From positions 2,705 to 66,704 of the forward strand of contig ONRQ01000021.1 in NCBI GenBank assembly GCA_900320285.1: a stretch of 64,000 bases of DNA, read 5' to 3'. Source of the DNA: an uncultured Eubacteriales bacterium (GTDB lineage Bacteria; Bacillota; Clostridia; Peptostreptococcales; Anaerovoracaceae). The stretch's first letter is position 1; every line of letters starts with the position of its first letter. A program made the position numbers and the translations under genes. This document shows positions 24,414 through 28,412 of the stretch, in pieces. The notes beneath the pieces were generated by a model, which saw nothing but the letters and a program-made list of their open reading frames with translations, did no database searches and was not told the DNA's origin.

Positions 24414-25496
24414 ATGAAAGAAGATAAAGCGATAACCGCCGTTGGAGTTCTGGCAGTGATACTGGGCCTGCTCATGATGTCTGTAGGCAGATTCATCATG
24501 GGCGGCATCACTCTGCTGATCGCGTTCGGAATTTTCTGGAACCGCGGCGGGGGAACCCGGAATGACCGCAGCATCTATGAGAAAATCGTAAAGACTGATA
24601 TGAGCATCACCGAGATCTACGAAAAGCTGAAGGATCTCGACACGCCGCTCGGAAAGCCATGGATAGCTGAACACAAGGGTTTCGCCGGTGAAAGCATCGT
24701 GTTCGGACCGTGCAGTTTCAAAGACTGCGTGGTGATTTCGCGAAGCAAAAATAACATCGATATAAAACATGTTACCAGGCTCGAGAACATCATCAGAAAA
24801 GAGGAAGACGAGTACAGGTTTGATAACCTGGTAAATCCGCAGGAAGCTGAAGTGACTCCTGAAAGATATGCAGTATTTGCCGGATTCAAGCTTGCGTCAG
24901 TTATGCTGGTAAGACACCTGACGGAGCTGATAGGAAAACTCCATGAGGACAGAGGTGCAAAGGTACCTGAGACCATGGACTTTTACAGGTTTTATTATCA
25001 CAATTCGGCCGAAGGTTACTTCAGGGATTCAGACGGCAATGACGTGCTCAGGGTAGAGACTTCACTGCGCCCGTTTACAGCAAAAGTATTCGATGCGGAT
25101 GGCAATGAGATGGCATCTGTGGTGCCTCACGCTTTCGATAAAAAGGGATACCCTGCAGAGTCTGCCGGCTTTGAGCTGTTCTCGGACGGAGAGCATTTCG
25201 GAGAGATCAGACGTTTCCGGGACTCACGCGGAGAAGGCTTTGAGGCAGATACCGATGCAGGAGTTTTCACAATGATACTCTTCCCGTCATGCATGAAGGC
25301 AAGGATCTCCTGCAACTACATGATAGAGCACGAGGGAAAGCTGAAAGCGGTTATCGGAGGCTCTCCGAATCTTCTGTTTGATGAGTATGGCAGGTGCAGA
25401 AATGACATCATAAATTCATATGATGATGACTATCTGGTACTCTACGCAATCGCTGAGATCTTCATACTTACAAACAACAGCAAGTTCCTTAAATAG
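24414..25496 (+). CDS. Hypothetical membrane-anchored protein
   Basis: 360-aa ORF with two N-terminal hydrophobic segments. I recognise no motif with confidence. Confidence 0.6.
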   Translation: MKEDKAITAVGVLAVILGLLMMSVGRFIMGGITLLIAFGIFWNRGGGTRNDRSIYEKIVKTDMSITEIYEKLKDLDTPLGKPWIAEHKGFAGESIVFGPCSFKDCVVISRSKNNIDIKHVTRLENIIRKEEDEYRFDNLVNPQEAEVTPERYAVFAGFKLASVMLVRHLTELIGKLHEDRGAKVPETMDFYRFYYHNSAEGYFRDSDGNDVLRVETSLRPFTAKVFDADGNEMASVVPHAFDKKGYPAESAGFELFSDGEHFGEIRRFRDSRGEGFEADTDAGVFTMILFPSCMKARISCNYMIEHEGKLKAVIGGSPNLLFDEYGRCRNDIINSYDDDYLVLYAIAEIFILTNNSKFLK

Positions 25497-25578: not shown

Positions 25579-26682
25579 ATGAAAAAGATACTTATCCCAA
25601 TCGAAGAAACACCTCGCAGTCTGAAATCGATCGCATACGTTAAGAAGCATTACTCCCCGGAGGATGCGGATATCGTACTTATGATGATAGACGAGAGACT
25701 CGGATATTCGGTCAGGAGCGACGTGGAAAGTGCTGCTGTCAGGGAACTCGATGAAAAACTCAATCTCATAGCTGAAGAGTTTGACGGATACAAGGTTACA
25801 AAACTGTCAGCTGTAGGTAAAGCAGGAGTAAGGATCGTCAGAGCGGTACGCGAAACCGGAGCAGATCTCGTAGTCATGACTAAGTCTTCCAAGGAGGACA
25901 TGCTGAATTCTGTCGGAACGACTACCGAATATGTGATCAACAACTGTCCTTGTGAAGTTGTCATCGTAAGCGAACAGGCTCATTCACGCCATGAGTACAG
26001 AGGCCTCGTATATAAGACGGCAAAAGGAACTGTCAACCTCAGGGGGCAGCTTGGCGACAAGCAGAGTGAATGCCTGCTTCCGAGTGTCAATCAGGACTGC
26101 ATATATCACATAAACGTTACGGTAGGAAAGATCAGATTCTTCCACACAGCATATAATCCGGACACCAGAAACTGGGATCTTCCGCCTATCCCAGGTCAGG
26201 ATGTAACTCTTGATATCGCAGCAGGAGAGGCAAAGGACATTCTCGTCAAGGCTGACAGCACCGACGGAAAGGCTGACAGGATCAGAATAGTCAACAGGGA
26301 CATGAGAAAAGAGGCAGTGTTCGAATTCAGGATCACAGCAGCTCCTGAGAATCACGAACCGGCACCTGCTCCTGAGAGAGAAAAGACGCCTTTCGAAAAG
26401 CGCGATACACTCGAGGTGCCTAGAACAGGCATTCCTGCGAATTTTGAAGCACCCGAAATACCTACCTTTATAGCCGAAGCAAAAGCTGAATTCGACGCTC
26501 TTGAAAAAGAGATCGCAGATGCTGCAGCAGCTAAAGAAGACCTGAAAGCTTCTGCTGAAACCAAGGTCTATGATGCAGCCAGCTTCGCGGACTACCTGGT
26601 TGATGAGGTAAAGAGCAAGGAACCTGCAGACAAGTCGTTCAAAGATTCCAATACGCTTTTCTCAGTTGAGATAAACGATTAG
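25579..26682 (+). CDS. Universal-stress-protein-like domain fused to an uncharacterised C-terminal region
   Basis: The N-terminal ~135 aa follow the USP pattern (KILIPIEE....ADLVVMTK....CEVVIV) but lack the G-x2-G ATP motif. The remaining ~230 aa are unrecognised. Confidence 0.65.
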   Translation: MKKILIPIEETPRSLKSIAYVKKHYSPEDADIVLMMIDERLGYSVRSDVESAAVRELDEKLNLIAEEFDGYKVTKLSAVGKAGVRIVRAVRETGADLVVMTKSSKEDMLNSVGTTTEYVINNCPCEVVIVSEQAHSRHEYRGLVYKTAKGTVNLRGQLGDKQSECLLPSVNQDCIYHINVTVGKIRFFHTAYNPDTRNWDLPPIPGQDVTLDIAAGEAKDILVKADSTDGKADRIRIVNRDMRKEAVFEFRITAAPENHEPAPAPEREKTPFEKRDTLEVPRTGIPANFEAPEIPTFIAEAKAEFDALEKEIADAAAAKEDLKASAETKVYDAASFADYLVDEVKSKEPADKSFKDSNTLFSVEIND

Positions 26683-26708: not shown

Positions 26709-26737
26709 TTGACAGAAGAGCGGAGTAATGGTATCCT
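26709..26737 (+). promoter_or_regulatory. Putative promoter of the SCIFF precursor gene
   Basis: TTGACA (26709-26714), 17-nt spacer, extended -10 TGgTATCCT (26729-26737). Confidence 0.5.
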
Positions 26738-26771
26738 ACATAAGGATTAAAAACTGACGGAGGGATTCAAA

Positions 26772-26921
26772 ATGAAGAGAATCAAGACTATCACAACAAG
26801 AGATATGGCTGAGTCCAGAGTCACCGGCGGATGCGGTGAGTGCCAGACTTCATGCCAGTCTGCAAGCAAGACTTCCTGCAGCGTTGCAAATCAGCATTGC
26901 GAGCAGCGCAAGGAAAAGTAA
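26772..26921 (+). CDS. scfA: SCIFF-family ranthipeptide precursor (five-Cys variant), 49 aa
   Basis: My own translation: MKRIKTITTRDMAESRVTGGCGECQTSCQSASKTSCSVANQHCEQRKEK. SD GGAGGG lies 7 nt upstream. The ORF is absent from the track because it is under 60 aa. A SPASM radical-SAM gene follows immediately. Confidence 0.9.
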   Translation: MKRIKTITTRDMAESRVTGGCGECQTSCQSASKTSCSVANQHCEQRKEK

Positions 26922-26932
26922 GATGCTTACGG

Positions 26933-26966
26933 CGGCGCTGCATGATGCAGCGCCGTTTTTTCTTTT
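26933..26966 (+). terminator. Intrinsic terminator between precursor and maturase genes
   Basis: 10-bp GC-rich stem CGGCGCTGCA/TGCAGCGCCG followed by TTTTTTCTTTTT. Confidence 0.7.
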
Positions 26967-26987
26967 TGTCTCACTTAAGGATAATCA

Positions 26988-28412
26988 ATGATACACATAT
27001 ATAAACTAAACGGATTCAATATGGTAATAGACGCGGCGAGCGGGGCAGTACACTCGGTCGACGAGGTCGCTTATGATGCAATAGAAAAACTGGATGCAGC
27101 CATATGCGATGCTGAAGGCAGAGCGAATGATGTTTTCAGTGACAAGGAACTGATGGATTCTATTGCGTCTGAGATCGTTCAGAAACATGGGATCACCGCG
27201 GAAGAAGCGGATGAGACTCTTGAAGATATAGCAGAGCTCCACGAAAACAGGCTGCTGTGGTCTGAGGATCCTTTCGAACAGGCTGCTGATGAGATCAAGA
27301 TAAAACAGTCAGTCCTCAAAGCGATCTGCCTCCACGTGGCACACGGCTGCAACATGGACTGTGAATACTGCTTTGCAGGCAAGGGCGACTACAGCGGCAA
27401 GAGCGGCATCATGAGTGCCGAAGTCGGAAAGCGCGCTCTGGATTATCTGGTGGAGAATTCCGGAACACGCAGGCATCTTGAGGTGGACTTTTTCGGAGGC
27501 GAACCTCTGATAAACTGGGATGTTTGCAAAGAGATAGTTGCGTATGGAAGAGAGCTGGAAAAGAAGCACAACAAGGTCTTCAATTTTACTCTTACAACGA
27601 ACGGAGTGCTCATCGATGATGACGTGATAGAATTCACCAACCGCGAAATGGGCAATGTTGTACTCAGCATGGACGGCAGGAGGGATACTCATGACCGTAT
27701 GAGACACAGCAAGACCGGGGGCGGTACATACGATATGATAATGGATAACTTCAGGTCTCTCGTGGACTCGCGCCTGAAAAATGCCGAAAGATCCTCCGAA
27801 TACTACATGCGCGGCACGTACACCGCATATAACAAGGATTTTGCAGCTGACGTGCTGGCGATGGCAGACCTCGGATTCAGGGAAACGTCTATTGAACCTG
27901 TTGTATCTGATCCGGATGTACCATACGCCCTGCATGAAGAGGATCTGCCTCAGCTCTATGAGCAGTATGAAAAGCTTGCCCTCGAGATGCTCGAGCGTGA
28001 AGAGCGCGGTGAAGGCTTCAGCTTCTATCACTATACGGTCGATCTCACAGGCGGTCCGTGCATATACAAGAGAGTCGCGGGGTGCGGAGTCGCGACAGAA
28101 TATCTGGCAGTAACACCGACCGGAGATCTGTATCCGTGCCACCAGTTTGTGGGCGATGATAATATGATAGTCGGCAATATATATGATGGTATAACACATC
28201 CTGAGACAGTCAATATCTTCAGGAGCGGCAACAATATCTATACCCGTGACGACTGTAAAAGCTGCTGGGCACGACTGTATTGCGCCGGAGGCTGCGCTGC
28301 AAACAACTACCACTCCAATGGCGACATCAATAAGGTTTACCGCTTTGGCTGCAAACTCCACAGAAAGCGCATAGAATGCGCCCTTATGATGGCGGCCGCA
28401 CGTGAAAAATGA
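26988..28412 (+). CDS. scfB: SCIFF peptide maturase (radical SAM/SPASM thioether-forming enzyme)
   Basis: CNMDCEYC (CxxxCxxC) cluster, FFGGEPL, and a C-terminal SPASM Cys pattern CKSCWARLYCAGGCAANN. Adjacent to the SCIFF precursor. Confidence 0.9.
   Translation: MIHIYKLNGFNMVIDAASGAVHSVDEVAYDAIEKLDAAICDAEGRANDVFSDKELMDSIASEIVQKHGITAEEADETLEDIAELHENRLLWSEDPFEQAADEIKIKQSVLKAICLHVAHGCNMDCEYCFAGKGDYSGKSGIMSAEVGKRALDYLVENSGTRRHLEVDFFGGEPLINWDVCKEIVAYGRELEKKHNKVFNFTLTTNGVLIDDDVIEFTNREMGNVVLSMDGRRDTHDRMRHSKTGGGTYDMIMDNFRSLVDSRLKNAERSSEYYMRGTYTAYNKDFAADVLAMADLGFRETSIEPVVSDPDVPYALHEEDLPQLYEQYEKLALEMLEREERGEGFSFYHYTVDLTGGPCIYKRVAGCGVATEYLAVTPTGDLYPCHQFVGDDNMIVGNIYDGITHPETVNIFRSGNNIYTRDDCKSCWARLYCAGGCAANNYHSNGDINKVYRFGCKLHRKRIECALMMAAAREK

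Follow-up and report, generated by a model that had tools for sequence, protein, structure and literature searches.

SCIFF peptides are named for six cysteines in about 45 residues, and together with their maturase ScfB they are among the most widespread RiPP systems of Clostridia. The 64-kb stretch of DNA analysed here (the window) carries a SCIFF pair in which the precursor has no cysteine at position 32, the mapped thioether donor, and the maturase is intact. The question raised by this locus is whether such a pair is functional and, if so, what the maturase makes from a precursor that lacks the mapped donor.

The gene scfA (26772..26921, + strand) encodes a peptide of 49 aa, MKRIKTITTRDMAESRVTGGCGECQTSCQSASKTSCSVANQHCEQRKEK, with a leader of about residues 1–20 and a core of about 21–45. 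The peptide scores 77.0 bits (cutoff 50) against the NCBIfam model TIGR03973, ‘six-cysteine ranthipeptide SCIFF’, covering profile positions 1–43 of 43, and 75.8 bits (cutoff 27) against Pfam PF13165. Only five cysteines are present, at positions 21, 24, 28, 36 and 43; the fourth Cys of the family is Ser32, and codons 32 and 37 both read AGC (Ser). Among the candidate acceptors Thr34 is present, and Thr37 is replaced by Ser. Unlike 30 of the 103 Ser32 clusters described below, the window peptide has no compensating Cys in its leader or tail. An in-silico S32C+S37T revertant gains just 5 bits. The numbering is that of the SCIFF peptide of Acetivibrio straminisolvens (L074), a close relative of C. 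thermocellum, MKHIKVLNGSTLKDGLKKGGCGECQTSCQSACKTSCTVANQSCEKK, in which the leader has the same length and Cys21 the same position; aligned to it, Ser32 pairs with Cys32 and Ser37 with Thr37. A wrong register is ruled out by this match to a close relative of CteA. By model score and gene context scfA is a SCIFF precursor, yet it has neither six cysteines nor Cys32, and is best filed as a variant, five-Cys Ser32/Ser37 subfamily. A first, sequence-only reading of this DNA had named it a SCIFF precursor with five cysteines and without Cys32 and Thr37, and all of this holds.

Two SCIFF peptides, Tte1186a (Bruender 2016) and CteA (Grove 2017), have each been reported to acquire one thioether in vitro, which links Cys32 to Thr37 (reviewed in PMC8326336 and PMC8172795). 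After co-expression in E. coli (Hudson 2019) the link was assigned to a Thr C-gamma and mapped to Thr34, according to the same two reviews, both of which state the discrepancy between Thr37 and Thr34 as acceptor. Only one crosslink has been detected despite the six Cys, and the engagement of the others is called open (PMC8326336). When the donor Cys of Tte1186a was replaced by selenocysteine, Se-Fe ligation to the auxiliary cluster AC1 was observed (2.44 Å), followed by crosslinking (PMC10177961); that study numbers the replacement ‘C31U’, which is taken here, as an assumption, to be the same fourth Cys. In a crystal of CteB with a leader-plus-Cys21 fragment, Cys21 was found on an auxiliary cluster and was not cross-linked (PMC8326336), so that cluster binding alone does not identify the donor. 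All reports agree on Cys32 as the donor, and it is the missing donor, not the T37S change, that is the real anomaly of the window peptide. The sequence-only reading had started from a Cys32-Thr37 link at the Thr C-gamma and concluded that, if so, neither donor nor acceptor is present. Such a link was indeed reported in vitro, but the C-gamma study mapped Thr34; likewise, Cys32 and Thr37 are both absent, but Thr34, the acceptor reported from E. coli, is retained. Its remark that Ser has no C-gamma is correct.

The Ser32 variant is not peculiar to the window and defines a whole clade. The exact 49-aa peptide is encoded on 47 contigs recorded in NCBI, ENA and Logan, and its 90%-identity cluster has 51 members, with the NCBI name ‘six-cysteine ranthipeptide SCIFF [Mogibacterium sp.]’. 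Ser32 members are already public under the generic SCIFF name, and NCBI auto-annotation calls five-Cys peptides ‘six-cysteine’. Among the 120 nearest protein clusters, 103 have Ser32, accompanied at residue 37 by Ser (101) or Ala (2), and 16 have Cys32, accompanied by Gly37 (15) or Thr37 (1). Neither Ser32 with Thr or Gly37 nor Cys32 with Ser or Ala37 was found among these 120, and residue 37 co-varies with residue 32 in the SCIFF clusters. Five Cys only are seen in 73 of the 103 Ser32 clusters; the other 30 have regained a sixth Cys, which lies either in the tail at the C-terminus (CEQCK) or within the leader (NLCES). Ser32 is invariant in all 103. The other five Cys, Thr26 and Thr34 stay invariant in this subfamily, and both threonines are invariant in 120 of 120 HMMER homologues, retrieved by a search that forced neither residue. 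Named members are assigned to Mogibacterium, Anaerovoracaceae, Family XIII Incertae Sedis, Anaerovorax odorimutans and Alterileibacterium massiliense. A description of a Cys32-less SCIFF clade was not found in the literature searched, which was incomplete.

For the family as a whole, a census took one genome per GTDB species and searched it for a degenerate DNA pattern encoding C-Q-T-S-C-Q-S-A-x-K-T-S-C, in which codon 32 was unconstrained. It gave 122 cores among the matches listed (at least 120 loci), in arbitrary order, and the frequencies are rough: Cys32/Gly37 in 61, Cys32/Thr37 in 56 and Ser32/Ser37 in 4, with position 37 masked in 1. Ser32 is thus rare in the family, at roughly 3% of the cores or SCIFF-bearing species sampled among the matches listed. 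As Gly37 is found in half of the listed cores, Thr37 is not conserved across the family and the T37S change, to which the sequence-only reading had given weight, carries little.

Several other forms of the peptide were seen. One rare form (P0075) has Tyr32 with Gly37, one step from TGC to TAC, and its source is a single 562-bp contig; another (P0018), also rare, has an in-frame duplication of CQTS within the core. A seventh Cys in the leader (NLCES, position 13) occurs in most Gly37-class SCIFFs of the census and is absent from the Thr37 class, and a leader Cys of this type is also found in some Ser32 peptides (L084, L107, L131–L144). In L019 (5633–5809, + strand) and L115 one ORF consists of two full leader-plus-core SCIFF units in tandem, with 12 to 14 Cys, as in MSRINTLNTRDL...CENTNSRIKTLNTRSL...CER; the hosts of these fused double precursors are one Lachnospiraceae MAG and one Clostridia MAG among the census genomes. 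Canonical Thr37 cores are also present on three contigs labelled Bacteroidota, Bacteroidales or Bacteroides (L050, L058, L085), and in L050 the leader is divergent and has no obvious Met start. These could represent mis-binning or horizontal transfer outside Bacillota.

The maturase gene scfB (26988..28412, + strand) starts 66 nt past the scfA stop on the same strand, the placement expected of a SCIFF precursor and its enzyme, and encodes 474 aa. ScfB scores 665 bits against TIGR03974 (cutoff 425), and 506.6 bits against the exception model NF040492 not_ScfB, which is below the cutoff of 855. Against CteB (PDB 5WGG) it scores 505 bits over residues 1–470, with all cluster ligands aligned. The radical SAM motif CX3CX2C is formed by C121, C125 and C128, and the SPASM Cys are at 358, 366, 384, 423, 426, 432, 436 and 455, in agreement with the earlier judgement that the cognate maturase is intact. 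All 12 Fe-S ligand or conserved Cys are kept in 12 of 12 ScfBs of the Ser32 clade and in 76 of 76 others. Residues 1–100 align with the CteB N-terminus (putative RRE region) with an insertion of about 18 residues, and one relative gives a faint PqqD match. The insertion (ScfB residues ~35–60; about 12–18 residues relative to CteB) is common to the nearest relatives of the window and not to the whole Ser32 clade, the spacing between alignment anchors being 44–45 residues with the insertion and 27–33 in other members.

Five positions of ScfB set the Ser32 clade apart. These are I113 (mostly L in other ScfBs), K132 (Q or E), G140 (mostly A), V368 (in 26 of 26 members, against S or A in 72 of 76 others) and H458 (F, Q or E). 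I113 adjoins the invariant C114, and V368 is two residues past C366, with which the CX12GX4C SPASM motif begins. As such, C366 is presumably a ligand of AC1, to which the donor side chain binds.

Both scfA and scfB are under strong purifying selection. Over core codons 19–45, the window differs from L045 by 12 synonymous and 1 nonsynonymous codons, from L124 by 8 and 0, and from L120 by 10 and 2. For scfB, comparison with the closest relative gives a dN of 0.087 and a dS of ~2.9, already saturated, and dN/dS is limited to this pair as dS is saturated in all more distant comparisons. A degenerate maturase is ruled out by the full set of ligand Cys and by a dN far below dS. Neighbour-joining places the 26 non-redundant ScfBs that are paired with Ser32 precursors in a single clade, which contains no Cys32 member (bootstrap 65/100, a moderate value); this clade adjoins the Gly37 class, with the Thr37 class at the base of the tree. 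Codon 32 is AGC, one step from TGC, in all 12 loci first examined. A metagenome scan added 19 further loci with TCN at this codon (TCT, TCA or TCC), all encoding Ser32 with Ser or Ala37 and all falling inside the same maturase clade. An AGC locus (L107) and a TCT locus (L131) encode near-identical peptides, with one C-terminal tail residue different, and Ser37 is encoded among Ser32 loci by AGC, AGT, TCA, TCT and TCG. The two Ser32 codon families would have arisen either by a two-step codon switch back to Ser or by a Cys-to-Ser change made twice. The presence of both AGC and TCN in one clade indicates that serine itself is selected, and is not just tolerated.

Upstream of scfA is a sigma-70-like sequence, TTGACA-17 nt-TATCCT with TG before the -10 hexamer (26709..26737, + strand), which matches the consensus at 10 of 12 positions and is the best in the region; we infer that it is active as a promoter. 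A Shine-Dalgarno sequence, GGAGGG (26759..26764, + strand), lies 7 nt 5' of the scfA ATG, so the putative promoter and ribosome-binding site attributed to this gene from the sequence alone can both be located. Between scfA and scfB there is an intrinsic-terminator-like hairpin with a T-run (26931..26967, + strand), with a stem of 12 bp (8 GC pairs), a loop of 3 nt and a folding energy of about -21.8 kcal/mol. Equivalent hairpins followed by a T-run are present at 14 of 15 Ser32-class loci. A strong hairpin directly 3' of scfA occurs in all SCIFF classes (median -17 to -20 kcal/mol; L001–L149), with a T-run after it in about half of the non-Ser32-class loci, and among loci closely related to the window the stems differ by compensatory changes. 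Its probable role is that of a partial terminator or attenuator, which would set the ratio of precursor to enzyme. The gene order ABC transporters-phosphoglucomutase-360-aa unknown-Usp-scfA-scfB-RdgB/Ham1-BrkB-DAGK is identical in 10 of 10 relatives' loci fetched, indicating vertical inheritance. The 360-aa ORF (24414–25496, + strand) has hydrophobic N-terminal segments and no Pfam or NCBIfam match, and occupies the same position between the phosphoglucomutase and Usp genes in all of these loci. The Usp-domain protein just 5' of scfA (25579–26682, + strand) has a long C-terminal extension without a family match, and varies in length from 255 to 446 aa across relatives (367 aa in the window).

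These sequence comparisons establish scfA-scfB as a real, functional pair, embedded in a conserved stretch of chromosome in a genome of the Mogibacterium/Anaerovoracaceae type of Clostridia, and as part of a distinct clade in which a strictly conserved Ser stands in place of the mapped donor Cys32. Were the Cys32 thioether the sole product of ScfB, scfB would be expected to decay; it has not, which makes a Cys32-independent role of ScfB in this clade probable. The sequence-only reading had offered a different crosslink pattern, or another role of the peptide, as what the substitutions may mean; that was a reasonable suggestion, and the evidence of selection strengthens it.

The most likely course is that scfA would be transcribed from its own promoter, with the hairpin passing a fraction of transcripts into scfB. 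The putative RRE of ScfB would bind the conserved leader (MKRIKT..TR), and the enzyme would still crosslink the core by radical-SAM chemistry, with another residue in place of Cys32 as donor. The core has the form of an internal repeat, C24-Q-T26-S27-C28 / x32-K-T34-S35-C36, and Cys24-x-Thr26 in the first copy would be the intact equivalent of the Cys32-x-Thr34 C-gamma link reported from E. coli. The repeat makes Cys24-x-Thr26 the most economical candidate site, and is the basis on which it is proposed; a published SCIFF crosslink from any Cys other than Cys32 was not found in the literature reached. That ScfB makes a thioether from one of the five invariant Cys, for example at Cys24-x-Thr26, is given about an even chance. 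The Cys32 ring would then be one of several modifications, or dispensable, and would have been lost in the Ser32 clade with the rest kept. Simple loss of the ring leaves unexplained why residue 32 is strictly Ser and not any small residue, and a direct role of the Ser hydroxyl would fit this better.

The hydroxyl of Ser32 could itself be the donor, joined through a C-O-C ether to an acceptor carbon radical at Thr34 C-gamma or a nearby residue. Ser is an isosteric O-for-S replacement of Cys, its invariance in 103 of 103 clusters and its two codon families within one maturase clade speak for selection of Ser specifically, and V368, fixed in 26 of 26, is close to C366, where the donor side chain would bind, if C366 is an AC1 ligand as presumed from the SPASM motif. 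Radical SAM enzymes that form ether crosslinks in RiPPs exist (TqqB, DarE). However, a SCIFF or PapB-type maturase with a hydroxyl donor was not found in the literature reached, an alkoxide is a much poorer ligand than a thiolate for the open Fe site of AC1, thiolate ligation is the mechanism reported (PMC10177961), and the co-variation of residue 37 with residue 32 is not explained by a simple O-for-S swap. An ether is therefore considered distinctly unlikely. It is unlikely, too, that there is no crosslink at all and that SCIFF functions with free Cys, for example in binding metal or Fe-S, in redox chemistry, or by partnering or regulating ScfB; the Cys32 thioether formed in vitro would then be incidental to the function that is conserved. 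In favour of this, the sole mapped donor is dispensable and five Cys are invariant, a single crosslink is all that has ever been detected (PMC8326336), and SCIFF is nearly universal across Clostridia, with housekeeping genes around it, an unusual setting for a secondary metabolite; a similar argument has been made against an antimicrobial role (PMC8326336). Yet ScfB keeps every radical-SAM/SPASM ligand and is under strong purifying selection beside scfA, which would imply catalysis, the leader and, it seems, the RRE architecture are retained, and quorum-sensing-type roles have been described for processed SCIFF products (Chen 2020, cited in PMC8326336).

The remaining alternatives concern the gene and not its product. 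A canonical six-Cys scfA elsewhere in the genome might be the true substrate of ScfB, leaving the copy in the window as a secondary or decaying one; the search for another core covered the 64-kb window and found none there with up to 3 mismatches allowed. The strong purifying selection on the core makes this very improbable, as does the presence of the variant scfA beside scfB in every Ser32 locus with a complete downstream region, and a pangenome preprint on Clostridia gives at most one ranthipeptide per species (10.1101/2025.02.12.637840). Sequencing or assembly error as the source of C32S and T37S has next to no probability and is refuted by the identical peptide on 47 independent contigs and by the same changes in 103 related clusters, with codons at both sites that vary among relatives.

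A crosslink from one of the remaining Cys, or more broadly a Cys32-independent role of ScfB, stays the preferred reading, and a selected clade without the mapped donor but with an intact maturase is comparative evidence for such a role. The Ser32 clade suggests that there is more to SCIFF than the crosslink published so far, and overturns no earlier finding. As Thr37 is absent from about half of the family and Thr34 is invariant in all peptides examined, the survey also bears on the dispute between Thr37 and Thr34 as acceptor. The window peptide would be a simpler substrate than those used so far, with one Cys fewer and no Cys32 ring to mask other products. If the unlikely ether were real, the product would be an ‘oxa-ranthipeptide’, the first natural switch of the donor heteroatom by a ranthipeptide-type SPASM maturase. 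In a broader and less exotic form of that reading, the physiologically essential modification made by ScfB in all SCIFFs would be something other than the Cys32 thioether seen so far, and the Ser32 clade would be the natural proof of this.

Among known systems, TqqB and DarE resemble only the ether alternative, in that an oxygen nucleophile meets a carbon radical generated by a radical SAM enzyme (for DarE, see PMC9055067); beyond the superfamily, no sequence relationship to the window proteins was found. Closer are PapA/PapB (freyrasin) and QhpC/QhpD, whose enzymes are homologous radical SAM/SPASM thioether synthases. The window ScfB scores 267 bits against NF047865 (PapB) and 254 bits against TIGR03906 (QhpD), both below cutoff, and by homology with Tte1186 AC1 is likely to be the donor-binding site in PapB too (PMC10177961). 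These enzymes differ in acting on repeated CX3D motifs or a protein substrate, with Asp or Glu acceptors. The characterised SCIFF systems are CteA/CteB (thermocellin) of Clostridium thermocellum and Tte1186a/Tte1186 of Caldanaerobacter subterraneus, and with these the window pair shares the two-gene layout, the leader motif and the register. Its core is identical to that of L074 at 24 of 27 positions, and its maturase aligns full length with CteB with the cluster ligands all present. The window peptide differs from CteA and Tte1186a in Ser32 for Cys32, Ser37 for Thr37 and five Cys for six, and the window maturase differs from CteB in the clade residues I113, K132, G140, V368 and H458 and in the insertion in the putative RRE region. 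The Gly37-class SCIFFs, mostly from genomes labelled Oscillospiraceae, Ruminococcaceae and Acutalibacteraceae, differ from the window peptide in keeping Cys32 and in often having the seventh, leader Cys (NLCES). They too are without Thr37, the Gly codon GGC is one step from the AGC of Ser37, and their maturases are the nearest neighbours of the Ser32 clade in the ScfB tree.
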